Origin: a virus
Lineage: Duplodnaviria; Heunggongvirae; Uroviricota; Caudoviricetes
Strand: one strand, 5' to 3'
Length of the DNA stretch: 64,000 nt
IMG/VR virus record: IMGVR_UViG_3300023181_000027
Coordinates: 35,473-99,472 of that record
Shown here: positions 1,008-61,352 of the stretch, in pieces
How the letters are laid out: each line of letters starts with the position of its first letter
Position numbering within the stretch: the stretch's first letter is position 1
Program-made: the position numbers and the translations under genes
Notes under the pieces: generated by a model
Databases searched by the model: none
Told to the model about the DNA's origin: nothing
The model's input: only the letters and a program-made list of their open reading frames with translations

Positions 1008-2123
1008 TTATATCGATGTAATAGTTTTTAAGTTAATGTCAGTGAAAGTATCAAAGCCATGAACCTTATGGAAGGCTAACCTCTTCAATAGAGTGGTAAA
1101 CTCGAAGTCACCTTTACTCAACCATTGTGGTCCGACAGCAAACACATGTGATAGATAAGGAGCGTTAGTCTCCACGACTAGCATGTTAACATTAAACGTC
1201 CAACTATCATCAAAGCCATACTCGTGTTCAGCATAACTTTTTAAAATGAAGGCGTACATAGCCATTTGTCGATAGTAGTGAAACTTTTGAAAGCTACCTT
1301 CAGCTCTCTTAGTGTACACATTACCATCAAGACCTCCCACTTCAAATGTCGTACCAGCAAAGGTGGCAATTGAAGCACCAGTTGTTTTCAAGTCATTTAG
1401 GGTGAGTATTTTATTCTCTACATCAACAGACCAGTTGTCTATTTTAGCTTTTAGAGAGAACACTATAACTTCATCGTCAAACTTATCAGGATTCGGTGAA
1501 TCCATACTCGCTTGCACTTGCATTGTCATTACATCCTCGTTATAACTTGGGCATCCTGGTTCAAGTAGTTTCATGATCAGTTGATTCTCAGTCACACTTT
1601 TCAAGCAAGCATTAAGTTTTACGTTCTGCTCACTAGTCAATGTAATACAACCGATACACTCACTCACTGCTTTTAAGTGTTCAAGATATACTTTGCCAGC
1701 TTCCAACACATTATCAATACGTTTCTGTGTCAGATTACTGGTATAATAATCACACTCTTTACAAGCTAAGAGTATAGCTTTGTCTGGGCTATATTCTTCA
1801 CTTAGAAGTCTATGGTAACTTTCCATGACTTGTGCAACCTTCCCGGCTGGTTTCTCTACGTCATTAACGTAGTACTTCCCCTTCTCAAGGATCATTTGAT
1901 GTACTGCAGAGCCAAGCTCTAGAGCAGCACCGTTCATACCTCCAGTGTATCCTGTTAGGAACTTGGTTGGCGAACCTCCCTCTTCAGGGTTTATAAGCTT
2001 CAGTAAAGAATTTGACACATAGTCTTTATACTTTGGGCCAAAGTAATCAGCATCGCTTACATTGTCTAATCTAGTTGTTGTTTCTGTCCTGTATTTTAAT
2101 TTGATTTGATTCAGGTTGTACAT
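1008..2123 (-). CDS. putative PD-(D/E)xK family nuclease (RecB/YqaJ/Cas4-like)
   Basis: 371-aa ORF. A D...E-x-K-like segment (WSVDVENKILTLNDLKTTG) is followed by a QxxxY motif (FHYYRQMAMY), as in RecB-fold exonucleases. No significant similarity was computed. Confidence 0.35.
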   Translation of the reverse strand: MYNLNQIKLKYRTETTTRLDNVSDADYFGPKYKDYVSNSLLKLINPEEGGSPTKFLTGYTGGMNGAALELGSAVHQMILEKGKYYVNDVEKPAGKVAQVMESYHRLLSEEYSPDKAILLACKECDYYTSNLTQKRIDNVLEAGKVYLEHLKAVSECIGCITLTSEQNVKLNACLKSVTENQLIMKLLEPGCPSYNEDVMTMQVQASMDSPNPDKFDDEVIVFSLKAKIDNWSVDVENKILTLNDLKTTGASIATFAGTTFEVGGLDGNVYTKRAEGSFQKFHYYRQMAMYAFILKSYAEHEYGFDDSWTFNVNMLVVETNAPYLSHVFAVGPQWLSKGDFEFTTLLKRLAFHKVHGFDTFTDINLKTITSI

Positions 2124-14866: not shown

Positions 14867-16869
14867 AATAGTGTTTCTTGTATTGGTTCCAACAAAGCTA
14901 TCACTTTATTACATGCGTGGATATAATAACGATAATCAATGTCGTATTGTTTTATTGGTCTCTCTTCATACTCATTAAACAGTTGTACGCCGAAACCTTT
15001 CAACACGTTAGACTTGATTAACACCTGTCCAACCTGTCCAGTCTTTCTATCGTACTTGTCAACTGTCTTACATTTATAAAGATAAGCACCTTTTCTACTC
15101 ACGTAGAATCGATTAATGTGTTGTTGTGGTTTAAGATACCACTCAACTTCATACTGCTTACCAATCTTTTGGAATGTAATGAAATCCCATATTGAACGTG
15201 CACCACGTATGGTGTCTTCAACTGGTATTCCCTTACCGAAGTAATTAATCAGTGCCTTTGCTACAATGAGACTGTCTAAACCTTTCCCTAATCTAGGATT
15301 AGATACAAACAAGCCTTTCTCTTTCACATAGGCGTTCTTCTTAATAGTATTGCTCTCTGGAGTTAGTAGAGGGTATGTGAAGTTAAACTCCACTGCTTTT
15401 TCCGGGGTATCGAAATCTATGGTATCTTTAACATCTGACCAACCTTTCTTAAACGCGACATAATCATTAACCGCCATAATGACAATCTTTTCATACTCCA
15501 CGTATTCTAACTCTAAACGAGTTTCAGTTTGCCATTTGTTGCAGATCTCATAGAACAATTCAACCTTTTCACGTGGGCATTTGACAGTTACACCATCTGT
15601 ATTAGACGATATCACCTCAATTCCAGCCAACTCACATCTTTCGATAAGCATTAACAACATAAGCTGTCCTGCCACACAAATACCAATGTTAGCTTCTGGA
15701 GCATAATAAGGTGAGAACATATTCCTCAAATTCCCTAAGATGCTATTCAACGCCAGTTTATAAGTTGTATCTTTCAATTTGTCTTTTGCGCGTTTGGCAA
15801 CAAGACGGTCTGTACGAAGATCTTCGAGTACTTGCAAGAAGGCCTCTTTAAATCCTGCAGGACCATACTTGTATAGAATTGCCAGTGATGGATACAGCGA
15901 TGCCACATCAGCATCAATAATGACGTACTTTTCATCCTCTGTATGCACTTTAGGAGTGTTTACAGAGTGTACGCCACCAACGCCAAATGAATGACGTAGA
16001 TTATTAATCCTTTGAATGATGCTGGTCTCACCCCAACCTTCAACCCGCTTTAATCCTTCAGAGTCGAGTACCATACCTTGATAAAAGTTTAATACTCTGT
16101 TTGCCTCTGGAGTTTCAAACTTAATGAACTCTGGAATGTAGTCTTTAACAACGATCTCATCTAAGTTAATCCTAGACGAATAAAGTTGCTTTTCATCGTA
16201 AATACCCAGGTTAGCACATATCCTTTTAGTAAATATGTCCACACCTATACCCACACCATCCTTCGATAGGCAGTCAATGCCAAACTCATTTTGAATCTGT
16301 ATTCTCAAAGAGATGTCATTTTTTAATAACGACATCAAATACGAGGTGGAATTCACATCGTTATGACAATAATAGATCAGATTATCATGTTGATCAATTG
16401 GAATGTATCTGTCCCAGTCAATCAACATCTCTTTGACATTATGATAGCACATTGTTATTTGCAGACTCTTTAATCCGACTCTTAGAGCTTTAGAAGCCAT
16501 CATAGTCATCAAGTCCATCTGCGCAAAACTGTTCTGCCATTTATACTTACTCCATGCTTGTGGTTCACCATTGATAATTGTACCTGCTAGTTTATAACAA
16601 GCATCAGCCACCAACAAGTAATTCCTGTCACGTTGAAACTCCCAAAACCTACTGATTAGCATATTCACAATAGGTGTATCAAAATGTATACAGTTGTATC
16701 CTACAAACACATACTGATCATCTTGAAAGAAGTCAACAAGCTCCTTTAACTGAAACTTCCTTGCACTTATCTCAAATGTACGTATTATCTCTTCACCCAC
16801 CACTTTAGCACAACATATGAAGGCATTTGGCGGGGTTTCAACGTCATATACACAGAGTTTCCGCTTCAT
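14863..16869 (-). CDS. family B DNA polymerase (compact, 668 aa) with 3'-5' exonuclease
   Basis: Exo I VYDVETP, Exo II YNCIHFDTPI and Exo III YYCHNDVNS are present. Pol motif A is DADVASLYPSL (DxxSLYPS), with a motif C-like SNTDGV. Confidence 0.7.
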   Translation of the reverse strand: MKRKLCVYDVETPPNAFICCAKVVGEEIIRTFEISARKFQLKELVDFFQDDQYVFVGYNCIHFDTPIVNMLISRFWEFQRDRNYLLVADACYKLAGTIINGEPQAWSKYKWQNSFAQMDLMTMMASKALRVGLKSLQITMCYHNVKEMLIDWDRYIPIDQHDNLIYYCHNDVNSTSYLMSLLKNDISLRIQIQNEFGIDCLSKDGVGIGVDIFTKRICANLGIYDEKQLYSSRINLDEIVVKDYIPEFIKFETPEANRVLNFYQGMVLDSEGLKRVEGWGETSIIQRINNLRHSFGVGGVHSVNTPKVHTEDEKYVIIDADVASLYPSLAILYKYGPAGFKEAFLQVLEDLRTDRLVAKRAKDKLKDTTYKLALNSILGNLRNMFSPYYAPEANIGICVAGQLMLLMLIERCELAGIEVISSNTDGVTVKCPREKVELFYEICNKWQTETRLELEYVEYEKIVIMAVNDYVAFKKGWSDVKDTIDFDTPEKAVEFNFTYPLLTPESNTIKKNAYVKEKGLFVSNPRLGKGLDSLIVAKALINYFGKGIPVEDTIRGARSIWDFITFQKIGKQYEVEWYLKPQQHINRFYVSRKGAYLYKCKTVDKYDRKTGQVGQVLIKSNVLKGFGVQLFNEYEERPIKQYDIDYRYYIHACNKVIALLEPIQETLF

Positions 16870-39279: not shown

Positions 39280-39393
39280 CGAGGAAGAGTGGACTCGAAC
39301 CACTGACCTTCAGGTTTACCTTGCTTTATGATTGCTAAGTGACATAGTCACTAAAATTGCACCTGACGCTCTGAACCACTGAGCTACTTCCCC
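39280..39393 (-). tRNA. tRNA gene with a 40-nt insert inside the anticodon loop (114 nt), carrying an AGUGAC-UAU-GUCACU hairpin
   Basis: Acceptor GGGGAAG/CUUCCUC, D-arm UAGCUCAGUGGUUCAGAGC, anticodon stem UCAGG/CCUGA enclosing 47 nt, T-arm AGUGG-UUCGAGU-CCACU. Confidence 0.6.
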
Positions 39394-44119: not shown

Positions 44120-44229
44120 CAGGGGCGGAGAGAATCGAACTCCCATTTACGGCTTGGAATGCTGAATAAATGTTTATAAGTGACAGAATCACTACTATTT
44201 ACGTTGTCCTACCATTAGACTACACCCCT
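44120..44229 (-). tRNA. tRNA gene with an insert of about 35 nt (110 nt) carrying an AGUGAU-UCU-GUCACU hairpin
   Basis: Acceptor AGGGGUG/CGCCCCU, D-arm AGUCUAAUGGUAGGAC, T-arm GGGAG-UUCGAUU-CUCUC. Motif at about 44173-44197. Confidence 0.5.
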
Positions 44230-48455: not shown

Positions 48456-49133
48456 TTAATACCCTTTTCTTTGAAGTAGTTCCATAATAGCTTTTAATTG
48501 TGGGTCATTATCAAAAAGACCACTCAATTCAGAGCTAACGGCAGTTTTCTCTGCCTTTTTCTTACCTAATTCTCCGTCACGCTCTTCGATGATGTGTGAT
48601 TTAATCACTTCCAATACAACTTTAACCATTACTGTCGGTGAAATTCCTTTATCCTGGCCACCTTTATGCATTACCTGCATAGCAATTTCTGCCACTTTGA
48701 TAATATCGAACACGTGATCAACCTGTATATAGGCCACTTTACCTTCCTTATCAGTGGATTTATCAGCTTTCTTCTGAGTGATCTTATCCTGATTTAACAG
48801 GGCCATACCACCTTCATAATTAGCTTCAATTTCGTAATTGTTAAGGTAACAGTACATAGCAACTTTGTATTGCTTTGGAAAGATCATCGCACTGTATTGA
48901 TCACTTGGGCAGAACATTGGAACATGGAGCTTATCAACTTTTATGGTTGCTCTGCCTCCACCTTTCGGTAAAGTTATGAGTGCTCTGCCATCGGTAACTT
49001 CCTCAACAATAACAACCTGACCATACAACTGCTCTGTCATACCAATCATCTTTTCTCTGTTTTTAGGTATTGCAACATATATGCCACCTTTAGCTACATT
49101 GAGAGCTTGTTTTAGAATTATTGTACCTTTCAT
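48456..49133 (-). CDS. hypothetical protein (225 aa)
   Basis: Track ORF preceded by the AAACCCCC upstream element. Confidence 0.45.
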   Translation of the reverse strand: MKGTIILKQALNVAKGGIYVAIPKNREKMIGMTEQLYGQVVIVEEVTDGRALITLPKGGGRATIKVDKLHVPMFCPSDQYSAMIFPKQYKVAMYCYLNNYEIEANYEGGMALLNQDKITQKKADKSTDKEGKVAYIQVDHVFDIIKVAEIAMQVMHKGGQDKGISPTVMVKVVLEVIKSHIIEERDGELGKKKAEKTAVSSELSGLFDNDPQLKAIMELLQRKGY

Positions 49134-49170
49134 TAGTTTGGGGGTTTATAATTAATGGTAATTCAATATT

Positions 49171-49395
49171 TTACTTGATAACAGTACCAACTTCATAGTC
49201 ACTATCTGGTTTCTGTAAGCTAACAAGAGCTCCTTGGAAACCGAAGTCATTTTGACTGACATACACTCTATCACCTACATTAAAGGCTTTATCTGTGTAG
49301 ACTACGGAATTGTTACGTAATTTAACTTTACTTTTGACATTACTAATACAACTAACCAGAAGCATCGGTAATAAGAATAATAACAGCTTTTTCAT
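49171..49395 (-). CDS. small lipoprotein (74 aa)
   Basis: MKKLLLFLLPMLLVSC signal peptide and lipobox. Confidence 0.5.
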   Translation of the reverse strand: MKKLLLFLLPMLLVSCISNVKSKVKLRNNSVVYTDKAFNVGDRVYVSQNDFGFQGALVSLQKPDSDYEVGTVIK

Positions 49396-49488
49396 TTTGT
49401 TACGGGGTTTTAATTAACAGTTTAAAAAAGAAGAGTGACCGGCATCCACCAGGTCACTCTACGGGCTAATAGTTGTTACATTATGAGG

Positions 49489-49573
49489 CGCGAGTGAATG
49501 GATTCGAACCACCGACCTGTGTCCATCTGCTAAGCATGGGGAACCACCGCTCTACCGACTGAGCTACACTCGC
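49489..49573 (-). tRNA. tRNA (85 nt, probably a long-variable-arm type), with a CUUAGCA loop
   Basis: Acceptor GCGAGUG/CACUCGC, D-arm UAGCUCAGUCGGUAGAGC, T-loop UUCGAAU. The anticodon assignment is uncertain (possibly UAG). Confidence 0.5.
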
Positions 49574-49579
49574 ATGAGA

Positions 49580-50080
49580 TTACCAACCTGGATCTCTATG
49601 CTTAACAAGGTAATTATATAACTCCTCGCCACTCATGAATTTACCAACTTGGTAATTTGGGTCTTTGAAACGTTCAGCGGATGGATTGGTCACTGTAAGT
49701 ATGTGGTTATTGTGACGTAGGGTCCACAAGCTATAACCAGCTTTATCACTGTAGGTTTCCATCATACGCCAAGAGAATGCTTTTACATAGTCTCCTGTTG
49801 TGTTACCACGTTTATCATAACCAGCATTTGGATCATACGTTTCATCGTCTCCATCAACTCTATTAATGTTTGTAGGTATCCCAACAGTGAGGAGTCCAAC
49901 CTTTAACATGGAATCCACTTTCAATTGGTATTTGTTTTTCACTTTAACAGGCACACTCACTGGAACCACTACAATAGGCTCTACAGTTTTAGCTGGCTCT
50001 GGGTAAAATACTGTTTTGTCACAACTCATTAAGAATAGTGGTGTTAGTAACAGCAAGACTAAGTTGGCTAACTTTTTCAT
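49580..50080 (-). CDS. lipoprotein (166 aa)
   Basis: MKKLANLVLLLLTPLFLMSC signal peptide and lipobox. Confidence 0.5.
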   Translation of the reverse strand: MKKLANLVLLLLTPLFLMSCDKTVFYPEPAKTVEPIVVVPVSVPVKVKNKYQLKVDSMLKVGLLTVGIPTNINRVDGDDETYDPNAGYDKRGNTTGDYVKAFSWRMMETYSDKAGYSLWTLRHNNHILTVTNPSAERFKDPNYQVGKFMSGEELYNYLVKHRDPGW

Positions 50081-50122
50081 TTTGATTTGGGGGTTTTAAT
50101 ATTATGATTGTTTGTCTTTTCA

Positions 50123-50518
50123 TTAACTGGCGTAGGCGTTTAGCATTTGTACAAGAATGTCGAGATCAGTGGAGATAGCAGCACCTGCAGCACCTCTCTG
50201 TGCAGCTAATTGACTAACTGCATAAAGTGACTTTTGCTGGTGTACATCAAAACCATCAAGTAACCCATAGAATATGGTACGCTTGTCTTTACGGTAACAA
50301 GAGTCTATAACTTCAGCAATACTAAAGAAACCGATTATCTCTTTGCTAATCACATATAAATGCACGTTACATAGGTCTTTCTGTCGCTCTTCTTCTGCTT
50401 GTGCTTCTGGTGTCCAGTCAGCTACTACAGGATTGAAATAGTCCACTTTTAATTGAGGGATAAGTTGGTCTCTCCAAGTACTGTTGTTGCAAGTACCACC
50501 TAAAAAGATTTTAGTCAT
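50123..50518 (-). CDS. nucleoside 2-deoxyribosyltransferase-like protein, paralog of 21256..21735
   Basis: N-terminal KIFLGGTCNNSTWRDQLIPQL matches the (I/V)(F/Y)LxG...(T/D)WR signature of NDT-like proteins. Confidence 0.45.
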   Translation of the reverse strand: MTKIFLGGTCNNSTWRDQLIPQLKVDYFNPVVADWTPEAQAEEERQKDLCNVHLYVISKEIIGFFSIAEVIDSCYRKDKRTIFYGLLDGFDVHQQKSLYAVSQLAAQRGAAGAAISTDLDILVQMLNAYAS

Positions 50519-50534
50519 GATTGTATATTTAAGA

Positions 50535-50969
50535 TTAAGATTTCCACTTCATAAGTAATGCGTGCATTAGAAACTCATTAGGATCTTGCATTACCACTTT
50601 AAATGACATATCAACATAGATCAACTCAGTTTCTTGTTTATCCAGATCGGTCATTTGATCAAAGATTTCACCAATATCAGGGCATACGAGATGTGAGGTG
50701 GATTTAACGTAGAATGGTATCTCTCTAATCACTTCTGGGCACCCACCTATCCACTCACCTAATTTGCCACCAGCATATAAGTAAGAAAACTCACGTGGTG
50801 TGTCTTTCACTTTACTCATCACTCGATTACCAAATGTGTAGAAACCGTACTTTGTGCCACCACCTTTCCAACCTAGTTGAACTGGTGTAATCCTCTTTAA
50901 TAGCTCGCGGCATTCCTCATCAGAGGTACGGCCATAATTCTTTAATAAACGTTCGATGTTTGTCATCAT
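50535..50969 (-). CDS. hypothetical protein (144 aa)
   Basis: Track ORF. Confidence 0.45.
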   Translation of the reverse strand: MMTNIERLLKNYGRTSDEECRELLKRITPVQLGWKGGGTKYGFYTFGNRVMSKVKDTPREFSYLYAGGKLGEWIGGCPEVIREIPFYVKSTSHLVCPDIGEIFDQMTDLDKQETELIYVDMSFKVVMQDPNEFLMHALLMKWKS

Positions 50970-51363
50970 TGTGGTTTAGCGGTAAGTAAAAAAAGAGTAA
51001 TACACCTCTAATGCATCACTCTTCGATCAATAAAACAATAACAAATTTAGCACCCTCTACATTTCATCGCCGGGTAAGCAGCAATATAGCAGTTAGGGTC
51101 AAGCCTGACACTCTTACGCCCGAAGGCTATTCGCATAACTCTAAAGGGATTATAAAAACCCTCACGCTTGTCAAAGGCGTATATACGGTTAGGATTACTC
51201 CATTACTCGGTGTCAATTCACCGATAACATCTTTAACTGCTCTCCACCGTTTTACTGGTGGGTCATGACAGTTCAGGATCAATGTTTAGCCTGGTTTTCC
51301 TAGGACACTCTTGTGTACACGTTCTTCACGAACTCTAGAATAGCACTCACACCGGTGTGAGTT

Positions 51364-51473
51364 GGGAGAAGGACGGGATTCGAACTCGCGACCACGGCAA
51401 CCAAAAGCTTATTAAAGGCTTCTAAGTGATAAAATCACTGTGTTACGTGCTCTGAACCAGCTGAGCTACCTTC
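51364..51473 (-). tRNA. tRNA gene with an insert of about 35 nt (110 nt) carrying an AGUGAU-UUU-AUCACU hairpin
   Basis: Acceptor GGAGAAG/CUUCUCC, D-arm UAGCUCAGCUGGUUCAGAGC, T-loop UUCGAAU. Motif at about 51419-51441, identical in context (AGUGAU...AUCACUUAGAAG) to the 38354..38465 gene. Confidence 0.5.
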
Positions 51474-51488
51474 TCCGTGTGTTGTAAT

Positions 51489-51523
51489 GTAAAAAAGGTG
51501 ACGTTCCTCCGAACAATCACCTT
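51489..51523 (-). terminator. rho-independent terminator
   Basis: In the minus sense, AGGUGA-(15-nt loop)-UCACCU is followed by UUUUUU. It sits downstream of queD and upstream of the tRNA. Confidence 0.5.
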
Positions 51524-51712
51524 CTAAATTAAAAAAATTGTCTAACAATGAAAATCCTTATTTAAAAACAAGAGCGTGGCAGGATTTTAGGCATGAACAG
51601 GTAAATGGTGATTGTAGCACCCCCCTTGTATTTAGCGCCTCTAGGAAGCCCCCGCGACCGTACGCTTAGCCGGTCCTTTGCCGCATGCCACCCTGCACAC
51701 GCTCTAACTCGT

Positions 51713-52099
51713 TTATGCGACCATACTCATATAAATGTGGTCTTTAACGAATATGTTTGTGAGTTTCGCCATAGCGGACTCTCTACCCATTTCGTCTATA
51801 GGTGTAATCACTACTTTGACAGCCATTGGATCTACTCTTTTCCTCTCCAATGTTGTTAATATTGTCTTCATGATAACCTGATGCATTTCCTCGCAACTAC
51901 CTGCATGTTTTATGTTACGAATGGCATCATCAACATCTTGATGATCGATCAGAAAGCCTCTGCTATCTAAACGAATTGTTGGGTCAAATACAATCTTGCA
52001 GGTGTAGTTGTAGCCATGATGGCCAACCCCTTTACATTGATTGCTTGTTGCTTTGTGTGGTTTAAAGTGGCCCACTCTTTCCATGACGAAGAACTCCAT
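51713..52099 (-). CDS. queD: 6-pyruvoyl-tetrahydropterin synthase family protein (QueD/PTPS-like)
   Basis: Zn-binding signature CKGVGHHGYNY (CxxxHGH.Y), and the size (128 aa) fits PTPS/QueD. Confidence 0.6.
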   Translation of the reverse strand: MEFFVMERVGHFKPHKATSNQCKGVGHHGYNYTCKIVFDPTIRLDSRGFLIDHQDVDDAIRNIKHAGSCEEMHQVIMKTILTTLERKRVDPMAVKVVITPIDEMGRESAMAKLTNIFVKDHIYMSMVA

Positions 52100-52121
52100 A
52101 ATATAGATCTTTTAAAAACAG

Positions 52122-52376
52122 TTACAAAGAGATACTTTTCTTTCCCCATTGAATGTTGTTCCATAATCTTTCATATACGAGATAAACTATGGTAAGAATG
52201 AGGTGAATTAAGATGGCACTGCCTATGCCAGTAAAGCAGGCAGTAATTGATGTGGTGATCAACTTGAAGAAGATGGTTTTAACTACACTACGTTTTACAG
52301 TGTCTAATTGTTGTGTGTTGTTCATTGTTTCGCGGGGTTTAAATGTTTTTACTTCGCTCTTGCGTAGAGAATCCAA
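52122..52376 (-). CDS. small membrane protein (84 aa)
   Basis: Two hydrophobic helices. Confidence 0.4.
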   Translation of the reverse strand: MDSLRKSEVKTFKPRETMNNTQQLDTVKRSVVKTIFFKLITTSITACFTGIGSAILIHLILTIVYLVYERLWNNIQWGKKSISL

Positions 52377-52680
52377 TTCAAGTCATCAGCATCTTCAATT
52401 GTCGCTATATAAGTTGACTCGGTATTCTTATCATACACTGTATTACCAATCTTTGTTTCGGTGTAGTATATAATATAATCCACACCATCAATAGTTACTA
52501 TTTCCATTTTTGTAAGTTTACAGATTAAAGAGACGAGAGGCTAATAGATTGTTATTCTTGTCTGTCTAGCTTATTAGCTGTTCATGTGCCGAAACATGGA
52601 GATTCACCATGCACTCTCGTACGCACCTTAGTGCTCTCTTTTAATGAAGCTATGTGTAACTACACCACTTAGCTTATTTG

Positions 52681-52750
52681 TGGACCCGAAGGGTTTCGAA
52701 CCCTTGTCCGGTTGTGCTGCAAAGCAGCTTTCTACACGCTTATCCTTTTT
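52681..52750 (-). ncRNA. tRNA-like fragment or minihelix (T-arm AAGGG-UUCGAAA-CCCUU plus a GCUGC-UUU-GCAGC triloop hairpin)
   Basis: Canonical T-arm and an acceptor-like 3' end, but no matching 5' acceptor strand nearby. It abuts the 1.2-kb ORF-free structured region. Confidence 0.3.
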
Positions 52751-53605
52751 TATGTCACTGTTAGGATCAGTCTTACCCTATTTCACGTTCGGATTTGTTA
52801 CATCTTTAATGTGAGGTAACTCCCACGTTTTAAGTTTTAATTTAGGCAAGCTAAGCTGTTTCTCACTTCGCTTCATCACAGACTTTACTGTTCGTGGGTT
52901 CATTTAATCTGACTAGTTCATAGATTTTCACCTACGACCGCACCTCCCGCCCTTAACATGCTATTTTCCGTTCCCCGCATAGCTGCGCGTTGGTTAAACC
53001 AGCTCGTAAGCCAGGTTTGCTTCAATGTGTGCGAGCACATCATCGATACCAGTTGTAGAAAGCTCTACGTTGTTTGTGTTGCCACTTATTGTTTTTACAC
53101 CTTACTTTGTACGGGTTGGGTGCCATGCCGTGCGTGCTTACTACTCAACTATCACCCCGTCAAATCCATACGGGCCCATGTTGTTTGTTTAATTTAAAGC
53201 CACCACTTCACCAGTTCCGTAAGATGAAGTGGTAGCCTAAGGTTGGAATGAGTTTAATAAACCCACCTGTCCCACGCATCCTGGTTTAGTCTCCAGAGCC
53301 TTGGAATGTTGTTGGTTTAGAACACTAACATAGGTCCATTCTAGTACCTAGATTTATTGCTAACAGAGCGTACACACTGCGTGTGCTTCAGTGTATTTCT
53401 ACACTTCATTCGAAAGCACGGATTTCTGCCCGCACTTGCCACAGATTAATAGCAAAAGCATTCATAAGGATTGTGCACATCCTCCCAATATTGTTGAATG
53501 ACCAGTATACGAGTTTAAGGAGATACGTAATTAGCTCCGTTTCAATGTGTTTAAGGGTTAACTGGTTCCATTATAGCCCACACTTTTTAGTTGTTCATGT
53601 TTTGA

Positions 53606-53905
53606 TTATTGTAACTCCCAAAGCTCATCACTGATTTTATCTTGCTCGGCTTGAGTATGACGTATTTTAAACTTAACAGTGCACTTTCTACGTGCATTGA
53701 TTTGTTTCACCAACTTCTCTCTTGTTAGAGTGTAGGTGTTGAGTGCAACAGCATGTTCCTGACATGGAACAAAACCGTTAAATGTAGCCTCTTTCACTTC
53801 TGGGCTACGTAAGAGATGTGGAATTGCTTGATTACCAAATGCTTTAATACAGCATTCAGGGTAGCCAAGAAACTCTCCATATACACGATTGTACGTTGTT
53901 TCCAT
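53606..53905 (-). CDS. hypothetical protein (99 aa)
   Basis: Track ORF. Confidence 0.4.
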   Translation of the reverse strand: METTYNRVYGEFLGYPECCIKAFGNQAIPHLLRSPEVKEATFNGFVPCQEHAVALNTYTLTREKLVKQINARRKCTVKFKIRHTQAEQDKISDELWELQ

Positions 53906-53908
53906 AGT

Positions 53909-54157
53909 TTAATAGGTTGTGATTACTTTAACAGTTAATTTAGGATGCTTTGTGCGATGATATTTAACTGTACCAGCTCTACTCTTTAACACTTTAGTAA
54001 TGAATTCGTGCGCTTGCCACTGCGTGATAGACATTGGTGTATCCATCATTAACATAAATCTAATGTTATTATAGAGTTCATCATCTTTTATAGGTGAGGT
54101 GGAAACAAGATCTTTTGTGCCATCTTCATTGATGATTGCGTATTGGAACTTCTTCAT
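53909..54157 (-). CDS. hypothetical protein (82 aa)
   Basis: Track ORF. CTGTTTATAAGTAAAGTC lies just upstream. Confidence 0.4.
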   Translation of the reverse strand: MKKFQYAIINEDGTKDLVSTSPIKDDELYNNIRFMLMMDTPMSITQWQAHEFITKVLKSRAGTVKYHRTKHPKLTVKVITTY

Positions 54158-54348
54158 ACTGACTTTACTTATAAACAGTGGGCAAAGTTACACATTATTA
54201 CCCAGAATGTGTAGAGAATGATTACAATTACCACCCATCCAAATAAGCCAAATAGCCAATTCACTGGTGGTTCGTCTTCTTTACCTTTTTGAAAGAGTAA
54301 GGAGTTCTTGGCAAATGTGCGGAGTGAGGGTTTCTGTGTCATCGTTAT

Positions 54349-54564
54349 TTAGTTTATCTCGTGAAGGAATGCCAACTCCATCTTCTTACAAACTGCCTTC
54401 GCCACAACACCGTGGTATATGCATTTGCCATTGACGAAGTGAGCTAGCCCTGGACTGTTCTTTTTTATGTCGGCTAACATCTGCTCAGCTTCTTCTGGAT
54501 CCCAATAATTGGTCCAGCTTTCACCTTCCATGAATAAAGTTACGACCTTTAACTTGTGTGCCAT
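54349..54564 (-). CDS. hypothetical protein (71 aa)
   Basis: Track ORF. Confidence 0.35.
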   Translation of the reverse strand: MAHKLKVVTLFMEGESWTNYWDPEEAEQMLADIKKNSPGLAHFVNGKCIYHGVVAKAVCKKMELAFLHEIN

Positions 54565-54621
54565 TGATGGAATGATAAGAACGATTGGATGCTAGCACAT
54601 CCAATCGTTGATTTGTTTCGT

Positions 54622-54843
54622 TTAACTTTCGCTTTCAGCTTTGTTAGCTTTGGCACCTTTGGCATCGAAATCTGGATGATCAGAGTTCTTATGATAGACT
54701 GGTTTCCCGTCTTTCATTTCGGCTTTATCAACGTGCTCACTTCCTGTATTACTCGCGTGTGGTGCTGAAGAGTGATACTGTCTGTCGTTGTCTCTAGGTC
54801 CATTCACATTGGTGGTGTTGCCACTTTTCGCTTCGTTTTTCAT
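54622..54843 (-). CDS. small hydrophilic stress-protein-like protein (73 aa)
   Basis: Highly charged and Gly/Lys/Asp-rich. Confidence 0.35.
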   Translation of the reverse strand: MKNEAKSGNTTNVNGPRDNDRQYHSSAPHASNTGSEHVDKAEMKDGKPVYHKNSDHPDFDAKGAKANKAESES

Positions 54844-54887
54844 AGCTTTTGGTATTTAGTTAAACAATATGGCCTGCAAAATGCAGG

Positions 54888-54975
54888 TTGTGACGGGTAT
54901 GGGAATCGAACCCAAGTCAGTGAGTCTCTGCATCCCTGCATTAACCCCTAGTAATGGCACCCTTTCGTGCAACTA
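54888..54975 (-). ncRNA. tRNA-like element (T-arm UUGGG-UUCGAUU-CCCAU), with the 5' half not resolved
   Basis: A T-arm and a 3' acceptor-like strand are recognisable. This 160-nt stretch has no ORF. Confidence 0.3.
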
Positions 54976-55006
54976 TCCGCATTATACTGAACCCGCCATG
55001 TGTTGT

Positions 55007-55468
55007 TTAAAATGTAAAATTCTCCGGCAGCTGAGCTTCTGCACCTGCATGCTTCAGTCTGTTTTCAATCTCTGGTGTCCATTCAATGTAATTGAATATT
55101 GGTAGTTCTTTGATTGATTGCTCTTTACCATCTAATAAGACGACTACAGAGTTACCAATTGTACGATTACCAGTATCTTCTACAAGAATTTGTCTGTGTT
55201 TTGGTACACGTAAGGATTGAAACTCCTCTCTAAACTCTGCTGTTACATCATCCCACTTGTTGTTCAACCACAATACTCTTAGTTTGAGTAGGGCTTCAGC
55301 GGCGAAGTCAGCTTTGTAATCTAAGGGTATATCGTTTACACTCTTTTCAATGGTTTGCTTAACTAATTCATAGAAGTCAGCAGTAAGCACATAGATCAAA
55401 TACTTTTTCATGTTTATATTGAAGGTTTTGGTTACTGTTTTGATAAAACGGGTGAGTGTGCTTACCAC
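55007..55468 (-). CDS. hypothetical protein (153 aa)
   Basis: Track ORF. Confidence 0.45.
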   Translation of the reverse strand: MVSTLTRFIKTVTKTFNINMKKYLIYVLTADFYELVKQTIEKSVNDIPLDYKADFAAEALLKLRVLWLNNKWDDVTAEFREEFQSLRVPKHRQILVEDTGNRTIGNSVVVLLDGKEQSIKELPIFNYIEWTPEIENRLKHAGAEAQLPENFTF

Positions 55469-55632
55469 TCACCCGTTTTACTGTTTATGTATAATAGAAG
55501 ACAATTTGGTGATATTTGTTTATACGTGAGGATGCATGACAACATCTAGTGTTAGTTTACTGTCGTTCTGTTGAAACGTGTGTGGGTTTCACACACTCGA
55601 CATAACACCCGTACTATCCCTAGTCCGACTAT

Positions 55633-55890
55633 TCATTTTTTGACTACTGCTTTCAGTATGGCTAGCATTTGTGGTGCTATTGGTATCATTTTATCTGCGA
55701 ACTCTTTGTTCTCTCTATGCTCTGTTCGTAGGAAGTGATATTCCTCTTTAAGCTTGGAGAGTTGTTCATCAGTGAGATTGAAGCGGTAGATGGTGTGGAC
55801 TTTACCACGTTGATCGATACACTTTAGCCAACTATATGGGCCATTACCAATAGTGGCGAAGCATTTGAGTGCTCTAGTAGAAAATGCCAT
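55633..55890 (-). CDS. hypothetical protein (85 aa)
   Basis: Track ORF. Confidence 0.4.
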   Translation of the reverse strand: MAFSTRALKCFATIGNGPYSWLKCIDQRGKVHTIYRFNLTDEQLSKLKEEYHFLRTEHRENKEFADKMIPIAPQMLAILKAVVKK

Positions 55891-55947
55891 TTTTATTTGG
55901 TTTAGTGTGGAAAAAGTTGTATTTTTTACTATTAATAAAGACTTTAC

Positions 55948-56235
55948 TTATAAACAGTTGATATCTGTACTCTTCTTGTATTCTTCTAGTAATGCAAATA
56001 GTCTAGCGTGATCGCTGTTAGTGTGATCATAGATCACCTCCTTGCAGTAATTCTTCGCTATTGGTACTCTCTGTCCTTGTGGTGTTAATATCCACCAGAC
56101 ATTCTTGTTACCTTTAACATCTGTATTCTCCATCTCTAGGAATACTATGCCAACACAATCAAACAATCTTGATTCGTAAGCGTCTTTGTTCGAATGGAAC
56201 TTTACGATAGCTCCCACTGATGTTTGTTCGCTCAT
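55948..56235 (-). CDS. hypothetical protein (95 aa)
   Basis: Track ORF. Confidence 0.4.
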   Translation of the reverse strand: MSEQTSVGAIVKFHSNKDAYESRLFDCVGIVFLEMENTDVKGNKNVWWILTPQGQRVPIAKNYCKEVIYDHTNSDHARLFALLEEYKKSTDINCL

Positions 56236-56525
56236 CTGTTTACAAGTTAAGTTGGATAATTAGTAAGTACAATAGGTGAGCGCCCACGTTAGTTCTTCAG
56301 TCAACCAATCCAGGTATGTTTAAGCTCACCCATATGTACGTTTATTTAGTTAAGGGTAAAAAACTAAAGGGTAGACAGCAGCTATTACAAGGTCTCTCAG
56401 TTCTTGTTTTTCACTACTGTCTGGTTTTTGTTTTGAATGTGATGAATACAGCACGTATGCAAGTGCGATGTCAGAGCGACATCTTACTGTGTGAGTAACC
56501 AAACAAACTGTATGCACTAGATAGG

Positions 56526-56975
56526 CTACGTGCTGTATTCTTCATTGTCGGCTGCATGTAATAGCTTGTGAGCTTGATTACATGTGAGATAGCCAGTACG
56601 GTATTTGGTGTTGTAAAGGGCAATATATGCTTCCTCCCATTCTTTGATTGGCATCTTTACATTAAGCCATTCAATATAGAATACTCCACCATTGTGCACG
56701 TGATAGGTGCCTTTTTGTTCTTGTTTGCCGTTATTAATTGGCATATGATCATAACTTCCACCTGCTTCTTTATGTGTTAGAAATAGGTGAGTGTCCTTCC
56801 CTCTGGCTGCTTCAGCCCCCTCAAACATTACTGTGTAAGATTTAAAGAAGCTACTAAACCAGAAGACTGCTGACCACATTACGCCTGGTAATGGCACTGC
56901 CTTTGCTAACTCTCTAAGAATTGCAGGGTCTACTGGCTTGATTACCATTAGTTCAGAAGATCTGTAGTATACCAA
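56526..56975 (-). CDS. hypothetical protein (149 aa)
   Basis: Track ORF. Confidence 0.45.
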   Translation of the reverse strand: MVYYRSSELMVIKPVDPAILRELAKAVPLPGVMWSAVFWFSSFFKSYTVMFEGAEAARGKDTHLFLTHKEAGGSYDHMPINNGKQEQKGTYHVHNGGVFYIEWLNVKMPIKEWEEAYIALYNTKYRTGYLTCNQAHKLLHAADNEEYST

Positions 56976-57298
56976 CCATGTTTCACTATTCTGTTTAATA
57001 GAGTGGTGAATGAATTGGTGATTCTATTTATTAGTTCTTCTGTGTCACCAACCACACGGTGATCTTCACACTCTACACCTATCATCAACTTAATACCTTG
57101 GGCATTTAGTGAATCTAACATTGGAACTTGTGCGGTAGTGAGAGCTTCGATAAGTAGATGCTCTGTGCGTGGACCAATCCATCTCGCTGCGAGTAACATT
57201 GATTCAATCTCACGAGTGGTTAACTTGGTTCTTTGATAATGATGGATTGGCATACTCCTTACTTGTGGAATTAGTGCCACTTTTTTTGACTTTTTCAT
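56948..57298 (-). CDS. hypothetical protein (116 aa)
   Basis: Track ORF with AAAACCCCGCACAAG immediately upstream of the ATG. Confidence 0.45.
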   Translation of the reverse strand: MKKSKKVALIPQVRSMPIHHYQRTKLTTREIESMLLAARWIGPRTEHLLIEALTTAQVPMLDSLNAQGIKLMIGVECEDHRVVGDTEELINRITNSFTTLLNRIVKHGWYTTDLLN

Positions 57299-57405
57299 CT
57301 TGTGCGGGGTTTTTAGATGTTATGTTTGTACTAAGCAGAGCCATACTCTCTAGATGGACTCACTCGATGAGGAATCGCTTACACTAGCTAGAAGGCTCTG
57401 CTTTG

Positions 57406-57771
57406 TTAATTTGCTCGTATTGTTTTTGGATCTACTCTTAGTTCGAGTGGATATGGCATGTCACTGTGTTTGATGTAGTTCTCACCAAAGCCAATGTATG
57501 CTTCTATTCTCTGACTGATTGTAGGTTGTAATCTCTCTAAACACAATTGCTCTGCTTCGTCAACTAACAAGTCTGGTAACTCGTAAGATTTACTATACTT
57601 AGTTTTCAATGATTTCATCTCCCATCTTGTTCTGAGTATAAGGAGTTTCATCTCACTGTTTGCTAATATGTAGAATGCTCTTGTTTGTTTATTGACTCTT
57701 TTACAGCTTTCTGCAATAGTCATCCCTCTCTCAACGAAGAAAAGGATGACTTTTAGTTGTAGGCTGTTCAT
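57406..57771 (-). CDS. hypothetical protein (121 aa)
   Basis: Track ORF. Confidence 0.45.
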   Translation of the reverse strand: MNSLQLKVILFFVERGMTIAESCKRVNKQTRAFYILANSEMKLLILRTRWEMKSLKTKYSKSYELPDLLVDEAEQLCLERLQPTISQRIEAYIGFGENYIKHSDMPYPLELRVDPKTIRAN

Positions 57772-57774
57772 AGA

Positions 57775-58233
57775 TTAGTCTTTGGTGACAGAGATTGCTG
57801 GCTCTTCAGTTTGTAATTTAGCGTATTGCTCATTAAAAGTGATGAGTTGTAAAGAGGATGGTTTATCCAATTTGGTATGTTTCACCCATCTGGTGGTTGT
57901 ATTATTACCACTCACATGCTCAATCTCCACGTTATTCTCTGCGTATTGATTGATGCTTTTCACTTTGGCTGCACCTAATGCTCCATAACCTGGATTAACA
58001 TACACTTCTTCTGTACAGTATACAAGTTCATCAATTTCAAAGTCAATACCGACATTGAAACCGTTCATTGCATTATACACGTGTGAGATTGTATTTTTAT
58101 CCAGAGCTGAGGCAATGATGGCTTCAGTTAGAAGTTCGGCATGTGGGAATGTGTGGTCAAACTTGTTGCGTAGGTTGCTGGCTATAGCATCAACACTTAC
58201 TTCGATTTTGATTGTTTGATTGAACTTTTTCAT
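57775..58233 (-). CDS. hypothetical protein (152 aa)
   Basis: Track ORF with TTAAAAGCCCCCAAA upstream of the ATG. Confidence 0.45.
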   Translation of the reverse strand: MKKFNQTIKIEVSVDAIASNLRNKFDHTFPHAELLTEAIIASALDKNTISHVYNAMNGFNVGIDFEIDELVYCTEEVYVNPGYGALGAAKVKSINQYAENNVEIEHVSGNNTTTRWVKHTKLDKPSSLQLITFNEQYAKLQTEEPAISVTKD

Positions 58234-58266
58234 TTTGGGGGCTTTTAATATTGTTAAACAGTTGGT

Positions 58267-58485
58267 TTATTTTGCATTTAGTGCTTCCACTTCCTTGCAC
58301 ATGGATTGCCAGTTTTCTTCACTGTAGTCTGTGCCAATGATGGCTGCACCTGTCTTACCGAATCTAATTAGTTCGATATGGTGCTCGGTTTTGTTTTTAC
58401 CAATATAACCATTGGTGTAGTTTACCAGATTTTGCACGTGTGCCATGTCCTCGACAATTGGCCACATTAAGATGATCTTTCTCAT
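58267..58485 (-). CDS. hypothetical protein (72 aa)
   Basis: Track ORF with AAACCCCGCACA upstream. Confidence 0.4.
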   Translation of the reverse strand: MRKIILMWPIVEDMAHVQNLVNYTNGYIGKNKTEHHIELIRFGKTGAAIIGTDYSEENWQSMCKEVEALNAK

Positions 58486-58506
58486 TGTGCGGGGTTTACA
58501 ATGTTT

Positions 58507-58794
58507 TTATTCGTTATTTTCGAGTGTGTTTAAAGCCTGCTCGTTCGCTATGTCTTCATTGGTCCAGACATCCAAAATGCCATCTTCGTATGTGATATAA
58601 TCACCTGGATGCGCTATTTTCTCACCATTTGCTGTTCCAACGAGTATGACACTCTCTGTTGCACGATTTTCTCTCATGATCCATCCTGGTTCATTGTAAT
58701 TGAAGTTGTTCAATGCTACAACCACCCAATTCGGCACCTCTTCAAGTTGTGAGCCATTCCATAGAACAGCTTCTAATCCATTTGGTAAGTTCAT
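58507..58794 (-). CDS. hypothetical protein (95 aa)
   Basis: Track ORF. Confidence 0.4.
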   Translation of the reverse strand: MNLPNGLEAVLWNGSQLEEVPNWVVVALNNFNYNEPGWIMRENRATESVILVGTANGEKIAHPGDYITYEDGILDVWTNEDIANEQALNTLENNE

Positions 58795-59084
58795 GGCTGT
58801 TCACTTAATTGTTTCTTCAATAAGGCTATTTCCAATGAGTCTTTAGTGAGGTTGATCACTTGTATGTCTGCATCTTCAATTGAAATGATAGCATAATGCA
58901 TGTTGTCGAATGTGTGAACACTTTGACTAATTGTCACCTCTCCTGCAGTGTTAACAAATTCAGCTCTCGCTATCTTCTGTTGTACTGGCAGCTCACTCAC
59001 TTCTTTCTCAAAACGGGTGGATTCATCGTTGCTATAGCATGATGACAATAGTGCGATACACACTAGTAGTAATAGATTCTTCAT
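58791..59084 (-). CDS. small lipoprotein (97 aa)
   Basis: MKNLLLLVCIALLSSC signal peptide and lipobox, with AAAGCCCCCAAAAAG upstream. Confidence 0.45.
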   Translation of the reverse strand: MKNLLLLVCIALLSSCYSNDESTRFEKEVSELPVQQKIARAEFVNTAGEVTISQSVHTFDNMHYAIISIEDADIQVINLTKDSLEIALLKKQLSEQP

Positions 59085-59358
59085 CTTTTTGGGGGCTTTA
59101 TGAAATTGTCAATAATTGGTTAATTATGTTGTCATTCTCACAAGAGTGAAAGTGTGAGATTATGGAGTTGGCAAAATAGTGGGCATGAGTGTTGGCATGG
59201 TTGAACTTCGATTTTGCAAAATTGAAATAATGGAGAATAGTGTGGGTTGAAACCAGCGCTACGCGCTACAACACACGCTGTCATTTCATTTTGAAATACT
59301 TTGAAAGTAAAACAGTGGCACCAGCATTACCTGTATGCCAACTGTTTAAATCTTCACA

Positions 59359-59601
59359 CTATAGAGTGTTGTGTGTCTTGTACAACGCGCCATTAATCCT
59401 CCAACACATATAATACATGTTGTTTTCATCCATTCTTGTTTGACCTACAAACTCGGTTTCGAATGAATCGGCAAGCACATTATATTCTTCATTAGTAATT
59501 AATTTGCAATCTTCTAACTTTACCATGATAATATTGTTTAACAGTTGGAGCTTCGCTATGGATCTAAACCTCTTTCGAGACCAACACAATTGTGTTTGCA
59601 C
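59359..59601 (-). CDS. hypothetical protein (80 aa)
   Basis: Track ORF. Confidence 0.35.
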   Translation of the reverse strand: MQTQLCWSRKRFRSIAKLQLLNNIIMVKLEDCKLITNEEYNVLADSFETEFVGQTRMDENNMYYMCWRINGALYKTHNTL

Positions 59602-60227: not shown

Positions 60228-60239
60228 TTTACTTTGGAT

Positions 60240-60632
60240 TTAATATGGGTTTTATGTCGAGACCAAGAAGGGGGGTTAAGTCGGACCTGGTTTTCCCCCC
60301 GAACCACACAGACAATTTTCAATTAAGGAACTACTTCTATATCCATTTAACTTTTAAATAGCTGATGGGAGGGGTGGGTAGAAATAGCCGAGTTCAAAAT
60401 TTTATATTTTATAATTTTTGCTTTTCACTTACATACTTAATAAGATAAGAAGAGGGAGTACGTAAAGGGTTGATTCATAACGAGTTAACCCTTTCACTTT
60501 AGTACACCAGACGTGTAGTTAGTCTAATAGACGGGAATAAAGTCTATTGAACGTGAATGTTGTAATACAAATACTACATTTTGTACTTTCAATAATTATT
60601 GTTATATTTGTATTACAATAAAATTATAATCA
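60240..60632. promoter_or_regulatory. divergent AT-rich intergenic control region with a 14-bp inverted repeat (TTGTAATACAAATA / TATTTGTATTACAA)
   Basis: The strand switch occurs here, with minus genes to the left and plus genes to the right. The inverted repeat spans 60561-60574 and 60605-60618. GC content is very low and there are several TATAAT-like boxes. Confidence 0.5.
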
Positions 60633-61082
60633 ATGGCAAAACATTTAGTCCAGTCGACTGAGACACAACATGTAGATGAAGAAACCGGCCAGCTTATCGT
60701 GACGACAATAGAGAAAGTACATACTATTAAGGTGAATGAAGAAGGATTCTTCATGACGTATATTTCTATGCTACGTCCATTCTATCAGCTTGAGCATTTA
60801 GCAGATGTGAAGTTGATAGTAAAGCTTTGTGAACTTGCAGAGTTCAATACAGGTAAGGTGTCAATATCTACAGCAAAGAGAAAAGAGTTATGTGATGAAC
60901 TCAACATCTCTACATCCAACTTCTCAAAGTATATTAAGAGGTTGAAAGATAAGGAGTTAATAAGTGGAGGGCAGGGGGAGTGGACAGTCTCGCCAGCTTT
61001 GTTCTGGAAAGGCGATAGGAAAACACGAGCTGCTTTGTTAAAGAACAACACATTAACGTTAACAATTAAACTGGAGGAATGA
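60633..61082 (+). CDS. putative DNA-binding regulator or replication-initiator-like protein (winged-helix candidate)
   Basis: 149 aa, first gene after the divergent region. A basic helix-turn-like segment reads ISTSNFSKYIKRLKDKELIS. Assigned by context. Confidence 0.35.
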   Translation: MAKHLVQSTETQHVDEETGQLIVTTIEKVHTIKVNEEGFFMTYISMLRPFYQLEHLADVKLIVKLCELAEFNTGKVSISTAKRKELCDELNISTSNFSKYIKRLKDKELISGGQGEWTVSPALFWKGDRKTRAALLKNNTLTLTIKLEE

Positions 61083-61291: not shown

Positions 61292-61352
61292 CCACACTCT
61301 TTACAAGTTAAAACTGTATCTTTGTCTTACTATTAAACCAACTAAGTAAAAC

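Follow-up and report, generated by a model that had tools for sequence, protein, structure and literature searches.

A C-run element at the Shine-Dalgarno position of eight small orphan genes in an uncultured phage: a possible mRNA-leader module

In a 64-kb stretch of an uncultured phage (IMG/VR record IMGVR_UViG_3300023181_000027, positions 35,473 to 99,472; hereafter the window), eight small genes are preceded by a short element in which a run of C residues is fused to a run of A residues, at the position where a Shine-Dalgarno (SD) sequence would lie. Our analysis confirmed that this element is a real, highly non-random and lineage-specific signal. We tentatively read it as a lineage-specific module of the mRNA leader, concerned with translation initiation of independently initiated orphan genes and spread by local copying.

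Results

Placement of the element

A search of the minus strand of the window with the pattern A[AG]CCCC[CG] revealed 10 matches in 64 kb, eight of which lie 3-8 nt before the ATG of an open reading frame (ORF) of 67-225 amino acids (aa), all of them at 49.1-59.1 kb and in sense orientation. The seven near-identical pre-ATG sequences described in the original prediction were all found at their genes on this strand, and an eighth copy (aaaaacatttAAACCCCGcgaaaca-ATG at 52325) was added to them. The matches are listed below, with negative positions counted from the ATG.

50089..50097, minus strand: copy 1, AAAACCCCC; A-run at -17..-14, C-run at -13..-9; ATG at 50080 of a 166-aa lipoprotein ORF (49580-50080)
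58237..58246, minus strand: copy 2, AAAAGCCCCC; C-run at -8..-4; ATG at 58233 of a 152-aa ORF (57775-58233)
59091..59099, minus strand: copy 3, AAAGCCCCC; C-run at -11..-7; ATG at 59084 of a 97-aa lipoprotein ORF (58791-59084)
49403..49411, minus strand: copy 4, AAAACCCCG; ATG at 49395 of a 74-aa lipoprotein ORF
49140..49147, minus strand: copy 5, AAACCCCC; ATG at 49133 of a 225-aa ORF (48456-49133)
57305..57314, minus strand: copy 6, AAAAACCCCG; ATG at 57298 of a 116-aa ORF (56948-57298)
58490..58497, minus strand: copy 7, AAACCCCG; ATG at 58485 of a 72-aa ORF
52333..52340, minus strand: copy 8, AAACCCCG; ATG at 52325 of a 67-aa membrane-type ORF (52122-52325)
60271..60277, minus strand: off-start copy TAACCCCCC, in the non-coding element 60234-60292, upstream of a 179-aa gene
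16831..16837, minus strand: off-start copy AACCCCG within the DNA polymerase ORF, probably there by chance

A match was counted as start-associated when the ATG opened an ORF of at least 60 aa. With a positional null of 6.1% per position, the finding of 8 of 10 matches before starts corresponds to a binomial P = 7.7e-9, and the motif is therefore not equally frequent at random or intragenic positions, the outcome that had been named as counting against the original prediction. In the interval -20..-1, CCCC was present in 8 of the 24 genes at 48.4-59.6 kb vs 0 of the 67 other minus-strand genes (Fisher P = 8.7e-6). The window contains 10 occurrences of AAACCCC vs 4.7 expected, a number reached in 2 of 100 shuffles; since raw abundance is only mildly raised, the signal lies in the placement of the element and not in its frequency. 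A k-mer search upstream of all starts recovered AAACCCC (6 of the 8 strand-wide copies being upstream) and CCCCCAA (4 of 4) as enriched. Past the window ends, 8 kb and 7 kb of this phage's sequence were searched and contained no further copies.

An exact scan of IMG/VR with the pattern AAAACCCCCAAA-N0-6-ATGAA retrieved 62 single-hit contigs, roughly the chance level, and no second phage with repeated use of the motif; contigs L013 and L017 showed only 2-3 loosely similar leaders. SD-less IMG/VR contigs with A/C-rich, G-free leaders such as TTAACCCTAAAACCCCCAAAAACC-ATG were found (L017, also L013, L049 and L069). Leaders of the form AAACCCC(C)AAA(A)CC-ATG were observed in these unrelated contigs, at L017 2150-2500, at L049 890-1625, and in L013 and L069.

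Anatomy of the copies

The eight copies have a composite anatomy (T-w-AAA-[C/G]-CCC-[C/G]), the C-run being always fused to a T-preceded A-run. Counted from the ATG, the last A of the A-run falls at -10 to -14 and the C-run lies within -4 to -13, with a gap of 3-8 nt between motif and ATG. The element thus sits at the SD position and is C-rich rather than G-rich, as had been noticed from the sequence before; it contains no G-run. An A is present at -3 in 7 of the 8 copies, and the final 20 nt contain 0-2 G residues.

Two sub-types were distinguished, CCCCC-AAA (copies 1, 2, 3 and 5) and CCCCG-(C/T) (copies 4, 6, 7 and 8). Copies that are nearly the same lie close together: AAAGCCCCCAAAA is common to copies 2 and 3, and AAACCCCGCACAA to copies 6 and 7. 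The linkers of copies 1 and 2 are alike, including ATGAAAAAGTT, and the whole 21-nt intergenic spacer of copy 7 (AAACATTGTAAACCCCGCACA) is near-identical to the copy 8 linker (21-23 nt). Copy 4 is preceded by a tRNA and a terminator hairpin, with a AAACTGTTAA box at 49414-49423, and the sequence TTACCATTAATTA upstream of copy 5 resembles a repeated box of a related phage (L007, see below). The sequence CCCGCACAAG, found with copies 6 and 7 (57299-57308 and 58486-58494, minus strand), is presumably identical, not complementary, to the universally conserved 16S rRNA segment at about 930-939.

A more general T-T-T-A-A-A-(A)-C box was found at equal distance before about two dozen other genes of the window, among them genes that start 18-50 nt past a tRNA. 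Another recurrent leader family, TTTAAAC-TTATAAACAG-ATG with ACAG at -4..-1, was observed at minus-strand starts such as 34653, 44080, 56235, 33367, 31339 and 32467, which suggests a genome-wide reuse of entire leader cassettes.

The phage and its probable host

The window is part of an uncultured phage present in a 134,778-bp metagenomic contig (ENA ERZ27228488 k141_348780), which it matches base for base. A second copy of the same contig was found in Logan SRR7968062, and both public copies are identical; the ORF behind copy 8 is also called as a gene in the ENA copy (locus L003, 67 aa). The phage genome has a GC content of 39%, and the genes of the window lie almost all on the minus strand (91 of 109 crude gene calls). 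Proteins of the window include rIIA/rIIB-like proteins, helicases, NAMPT and a family-A DNA polymerase whose top match is in crAss-like phages (38%), and a Ter-type cluster, a transfer-messenger RNA (tmRNA) and several tRNAs are also encoded. No DNA match was found among deposited phages (INPHARED), and a protein search with the block proteins and two large proteins was also empty; relatives sought in IMG/VR, JGI metagenomes and GTDB genomes were not found either.

No SD signal was detected upstream of 91 starts. Leaders are A/T-rich genome-wide, with G depleted 2-3 fold, and in the profile of the 91 starts G reaches only 5-10% at -20 to -9, with A peaks at -13..-11 and -6..-3. A few host-type promoters of the Bacteroidota kind (TTG-N19-TAnnTTTG) were found at 60603 (plus), 61317 (plus), 63632 (plus) and 11867 (minus). 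Based on the lack of an SD signal, the A-peaked and G-poor leaders and the TAnnTTTG-type promoters, the host is most likely a member of the Bacteroidota, whose ribosomes probably make no use of SD pairing. The promoter look-alikes at 1755-1782 (plus) and 61297-61324 (plus) have a common upstream sequence, cactctttacaag, and the host-type look-alike at 1775 runs antisense to a minus-strand gene.

Initiation signals and predicted structure of the leaders

Within -20..-1, G accounts for 6% of positions vs 21.6% strand-wide. Depletion of G was observed in the leaders of all the phages compared; enrichment in C was restricted to the motif leaders (31%) and those of L017 (24%). The suggested complementarity to the 16S 3' end was examined with the tail sequence GAUCACCUCCUUUCU: duplex energies of the eight leaders were near zero (-1.7 to +0.9 kcal/mol), so pairing with the anti-SD (CCUCC), and with it the identity of the element as an SD sequence, was rejected.

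In Flavobacterium johnsoniae, initiation is associated with A at -3, A at -6 and weak structure, and A is enriched from -14 to -11, significantly so at -12 and -13 (PMC6847099). The leaders studied here show the corresponding upstream-adenine enrichment at about -11 to -14, with the A-run ending at -10..-14 in all eight copies and starting as far upstream as -17 in copy 1; A at -6 was found in 4 of 8 copies, the remainder having C or G. Since the A-run coincides with the upstream-adenine zone, the C-run fills the spacer that corresponds to the SD position.

According to structure prediction, the motif leaders are the least structured of the window, with a mean pairing probability over -20..+3 of 0.24 vs 0.40 (Mann-Whitney P = 0.005). 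In the minimum-energy fold the C-run is unpaired in 7 of 8 leaders, one or two C residues being paired in copy 7. A terminator or hairpin role was rejected given these folds and the absence of a complementary G-run nearby.

Remote relatives and the leader of copy 2

Four remote phages (L006/L011, L007, L008/L009 and L010) were reached through a protein database. Homologs of the 527-aa protein were found in L006/L011 (39%) and L007 (34%), and homologs of the 179-aa protein in L006 (78%), L008/L009 (68%) and L010 (51%). The relatives are syntenic with the window, with a divergent control region followed by the 179-aa gene and then by a block of small genes with the tmRNA. The non-coding element 60234-60292, which holds one of the off-start copies, is conserved in the window, L006, L008 and L010, and partly in L007. 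Two upstream boxes of this family are relevant to the position of the C-run:

59527..59570, minus strand: promoter-like family element GGTTTAGATCCATAGCGAAGCTCCAACTGTTAAACAATATTATC, before the ATG at 59526 of a 55-aa ORF; no C-run
58247..58263, minus strand: 5' part of the conserved box above copy 2, AACTGTTTAACAATATT, orthologous to L008 AAACTGTAAAACAATATT

The site at 59527-59570 served as the reference for an upstream box without C-run. Its arrangement, GGTTTAG-N13-GCTCAAACTGTTAAAC-N9-ATG, spans about 44 nt, with four occurrences in L006 and a single one in L008, in L010 and in the window (59526). The four phages that conserve it have proteins of only 50-80% identity, and it probably represents a family-specific promoter of small accessory genes. 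Small genes of L007 carry TAACCATTTAAnTA followed by CAAACAACCAAC upstream. In the window, 5 of the 9 minus-strand matches to AACTGTT[TA]A lie 20-69 nt before starts, concentrated in the block and including sites upstream of copies 2 and 4. No CCCC run was found in the four related phages, all of which retain the AACTGT..AATATTAAA box; A/C-rich, G-free leaders are present in them (CAAACAACCAAC in L007, AAACCCA in L006 and L010), the weaker AAACCCA(C) of L006 and L010 being at the same place as the element.

Only one of the eight motif genes has any ortholog: the gene behind copy 2 (57775-58233) is 59% identical to L008 2934-3338, and L008 and the window phage come from the same sample. The aligned leaders read ...CTTAAACTGTAAAACAATATTAAA-ATGAAAAAGTTC in L008 and ...CCAACTGTTTAACAATATTAAA-AGCCCCCAAA-ATGAAAAAGTTC in the window. 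The AACTGT..AATATTAAA box thus adjoins the ATG in L008, and in the window AGCCCCCAAA (58234-58243) intervenes. As both flanks are orthologous, the C-run is a clean 10-nt insertion between box and ATG, unless L008 has lost the segment. The TAAA at the end of the box merges into the A-run of copy 2, and the insertion re-creates an A-run at -10..-13. It follows that the C-run does not belong to the family-wide box and that it lies downstream of this box, most simply in the leader.

In the divergent control region (60228-60632), a host-type promoter for the plus-strand genes was observed, together with 2-3 near-palindromic repeats (CGTCTATTAGACT) by a winged-helix/RepL-like gene (60633-61082, plus), a conserved C-rich CACCCACCCCTCC, and a conserved AGGTCCGA..TAACCCCCCTTCT.GGTCTCGACATAAAACCCA upstream of the 179-aa gene. 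These elements are common to L006 and L008, and partly to L010 and L007.

Genes behind the element

The statement that most of the genes encode secreted proteins or lipoproteins was not sustained: a lipoprotein signal peptide was predicted for 3 of the 8 products (those starting at 50080, 49395 and 59084), one is a small membrane protein and four have no signal. A specific link of the element to secreted proteins, which would cover 4 of 8 only, was accordingly rejected. None of the eight products has a Pfam match and at most one has a borderline PHROG match (E = 0.0075); no homolog of the copy 5 product (48456-49133) was found among 5.8 billion proteins. No paralogs were found among the block proteins, so shared gene ancestry was rejected as the cause of the repeated element.

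The element is borne by genes that need their own initiation, and starts that overlap or abut the preceding ORF (58794, 57771 and 56948) lack it. Across phages, the positions of the motif genes hold unrelated genes, and 54349-55890 and the 179-aa gene are conserved; as the motif genes differ between the window and its relatives while the neighbours are kept, they occupy a hyperplastic region.

Other features of the window

An unannotated stem-closed RNA of about 135 nt (z = -2.1 to -3.3) was predicted at 51565-51705 (minus), with a QueD-like gene on one side and a tRNA on the other. It has a closing stem of 12-13 bp and two G-runs, and is followed by a U-run; a terminator hairpin lies at 51495-51530; no Rfam family was found for the 51.5-51.7 kb RNA. 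An analogous stem-closed RNA was observed at a similar position in L007 (about 19990-20150).

The tmRNA lies within the small-gene block (52678-53177, minus; Rfam 78.8 bits) and is kept in remote relatives (L011 16450-16829 and L007 19045-19469). Over-long tRNA-like genes (85-114 nt) were found at 39280-39393, 44120-44229, 51365-51475, 49487-49573 and 54892-54980 (minus), two of them with abnormal anticodon loops ('cc' and 'aggg') according to ARAGORN; introns or unusual decoding are possible. The non-coding stretch 59135-59354 (minus) is about 72% identical to L006 15038-15258, with unrelated small genes at its flanks, and may be a conserved RNA or regulatory region. The regions at about 19-32 kb and 50-52 kb encode the Ter-type cluster (TerD, TerC, a vWA-TerF-like protein, a ComF-like phosphoribosyltransferase and HAD), and also PTH2, a dATP/dGTP diphosphohydrolase domain, a QueD/PTPS-like protein, NAMPT, NUDIX, cpYpsA and two nucleoside deoxyribosyltransferase-like proteins. 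This gene content suggests nucleotide or DNA-modification metabolism.

Discussion

The observations from which an interpretation of the element has to start are its position, its specificity, the insertion downstream of the conserved box, the absence of anti-SD pairing and the low predicted structure of the leaders. The C-run most likely lies within the mRNA leader, where it would be transcribed and may act on translation. In the leader module that we tentatively favour, the A-run would be the ordinary upstream-adenine determinant of Bacteroidia, normally located at -11 to -14, and the run of four or five C residues would fill the SD-position spacer with G-free, non-pairing sequence, keeping the start region single-stranded and setting the A-run at the right distance. 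Direct recognition of the C-run, whether by S1, the 30S platform or a G-rich stretch of rRNA, is a further possibility. Transcripts would begin upstream of the A-run, for instance 4-8 nt after AACTGTTAAAC, and the copies would probably have spread by short-patch copying between neighbouring leaders. Of the functions put forward in the original prediction, a phage-specific translation-initiation site stays plausible, because the genome-wide lack of SD sequences and the G-poor leaders make a non-SD signal at the mRNA level plausible; its reading as a -10 element did not hold.

Several points weigh against this interpretation. In F. johnsoniae, the frequency of C near starts is uncorrelated with translation (PMC6847099), and C-rich ribosome-binding sites were inefficient in E. 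coli cells (PMC3310771). The C-run of copy 1 covers -12/-13, positions that favour A. The orthologous leader of L008, from the same sample, has no C-run, and the host ribosome therefore does not require it. The clustering of the sub-types (copies 2 and 3; 6 and 7; 1 and 5) could reflect copying without selection. Finally, the eightfold recurrence of a contiguous CCCC[CG] directly behind the A-run is not accounted for by a generic unstructured A/C leader.

The element might alternatively be a minimal phage-specific promoter, which we consider unlikely. The T-rich/TAAA[C/G] part would then be a single -10/-7-like box and the C-run a purine-free discriminator forcing initiation onto the first purine after it, with leaders of 3-8 nt. 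The constant fusion of the C-run to the A/T box at a variable distance from the ATG fits such a promoter, as does the presence of a purine 4-5 nt past the box end in all eight copies (A in seven, G in one), which matches the spacing in F. johnsoniae, where transcripts begin 4-5 nt past the -7 promoter element (PMC6847099). Individual promoters are, moreover, common for small phage accessory genes, and the terminator hairpin before copy 4 and the terminator plus 550 nt before copy 3 imply that promoters are needed near there. However, TAATATTAAAA does not fit a sigma-70 -10 box: the recognisable host-type promoters of the window are of the Bacteroidota TTG...TAnnTTTG type, and none of the eight sites has one; TAnnTTTG (-7) with TTG/TTTG (-33) about 19-21 nt upstream is absent from all of them. 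A sigma-70 consensus scan (TTGACA-N16-18-TATAAT) gave 34 sites vs 39.7 in shuffles, none of them at the motif copies apart from a weak match some 40 nt upstream of copy 3. Neither an upstream partner element at a fixed distance, as in a two-box promoter, nor any information content upstream of the box was found. Host-type and sigma-70 promoters at these sites were rejected on these grounds. A scan of approximately 90 window proteins revealed neither a sigma factor nor an RNA polymerase, and near-leaderless mRNAs would be required, yet 87% of F. johnsoniae leaders exceed 10 nt (PMC6847099). The same A/T box occurs 18-50 nt past tRNA genes (32670, 39150, 40071 and 44080), where a promoter would sit inside the tRNA, and wherever the C-run occurs together with the box conserved in the relatives (GGTTTAG-N13-GCTCAAACTGTTAAAC), the box is the upstream one of the two.

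Two further explanations, both of which we regard as quite improbable, concern a trans-acting reader and a by-product of copying. The C-run could be an operator tag bound by an RNA-binding protein or by a small RNA (sRNA) with a G-rich seed, co-regulating the eight orphan genes. The sequence specificity of the motif and its limitation to one phage lineage and one gene block favour such a tag, and its absence from the orthologous leader of L008 in the same sample argues for a phage-encoded over a host reader. For the proposed complementarity to a phage-encoded RNA, a marginal hit was obtained: the best predicted partner on the entire minus strand is GUCGCGGGGGCUUC at 51645-51668, in the same block and within the predicted 135-nt RNA, with 8-bp perfect matches to copies 2 and 3 (AAGCCCCC) and 8 (CCCCGCGA), but its summed duplex energy (-120.8 kcal/mol) is just slightly better than those of G-runs in coding genes (-118.1 and -114.9 kcal/mol). 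In addition, the fold predicted for the RNA ties up part of its G-run in base pairs, no co-varying partner for the L006 and L007 leaders was found in the sequence available, and RegA, KH, S1 and cold-shock domains were not found among the window proteins scanned. As regards copying or recombination, the linker (stop codon, about 20-40 nt, ATG) could be a reused cassette junction carrying along a functionless C-run. The orphan status of the eight genes, with one ortholog and without paralogs, their location at positions that differ between the window and L006 amid conserved flanks, the near-identity of whole linkers (copies 7/8 and 1/2), the physical clustering of the sub-types and the precedent of T4-type phages, in which promoter-early and stem-loop (PeSL) sequences flank orphan genes in hyperplastic regions (PMC2839356, PMC4122927), are all in line with this. 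Against it, the orthology of both flanks of the copy 2 C-run with L008 indicates a micro-insertion within the leader and not a cassette junction; only copies 3, 4 and 6 have a stem-loop in the 60 nt or so upstream; and a neutral C-run of 4-5 nt is unlikely to persist in eight leaders of a genome with 39% GC while their flanks diverge.

Beyond the leader module as we propose it, the C-run could be a true sequence-specific recruiting signal that replaces the SD sequence on SD-blind Bacteroidia ribosomes, a possibility that we judge very unlikely. In Bacteroidia, bS21, bS18 and bS6 keep the anti-SD sequestered on the platform (PMC7797042). The C-run would lie where the SD sequence lies on the 30S platform, and it resembles the pyrimidine-rich anti-SD tail; its reader might be the bS6/bS18/bS21 groove that normally holds this tail, a G-rich rRNA segment or S1, or a G-rich small RNA of the phage, for which the 51.56-51.70 kb RNA would be a candidate. 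If so, the phage would possess a private channel to express an accessory gene set. A compact natural repeat at the SD position, gained as a 10-nt insertion in one lineage and missing in a sister phage from the same sample, offers a test case for the choice and tuning of start codons without SD pairing in Bacteroidia and their very abundant phages: for the reading of non-adenine leader sequence by the ribosome, for the tagging of mRNA groups by phages and for the spread of linkers among orphan genes. The finding would be an ordinary one if the element were just an unstructured spacer.

Comparison with known systems

The element is not a PeSL in the strict sense, nor an SD sequence, nor a host-type promoter. 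Like the T4-type PeSL, it is a repeated short regulatory sequence before small orphan genes in a variable region, with evident local copying; unlike it, the element is much shorter and lacks both a consistent stem-loop and a recognisable host promoter, and the C-run of copy 2 is an insertion within a leader. The T4 RegA translational operators and the T4 late promoter (TATAAATA) are also short, A/T-rich conserved sequences by many phage starts that a phage factor can read, and the operator tag discussed above would be akin to T4 RegA or sRNA regulons. Here, however, no RegA-like, gp55-like or other reader was found among the approximately 90 window proteins, and a -10-type role like that of the late promoter would mean leaders of 3-8 nt. 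With the SD sequence the element has in common its location 4-13 nt upstream of the start and a spacing that varies by a few nucleotides, but it consists of pyrimidine and A, like the anti-SD itself, and has no complementarity to it.

In vitro selection by ribosome display has yielded C-rich non-SD ribosome-binding sites, natural examples of which were noted in some phage 5' untranslated regions, and pairing to G-rich 16S segments was proposed for them (PMC3310771). They resemble the present element in having a C-rich stretch directly before the start in place of the SD sequence, and differ from it in that they were selected on E. coli ribosomes and are poor in vivo, and in that their short motifs show no striking position dependence (PMC3310771). 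The SD-less initiation region of Bacteroidia is similar to the leaders described here in the lack of SD, the scarcity of G, the A-run ending at -10..-14, the A at -3 (7 of 8) and the low predicted structure. It differs in that its described signal has no contiguous C4-5 run fused to an A-run and its C content was neutral in the published analysis (PMC6847099), whereas the C-tract is confined to one phage and to eight of its genes. Altogether, the class that suits the element best is that of SD-independent initiation regions, as a variant in which the A-run is already known and the C-run is new, and it would be more than a variant if something reads the C-run specifically.

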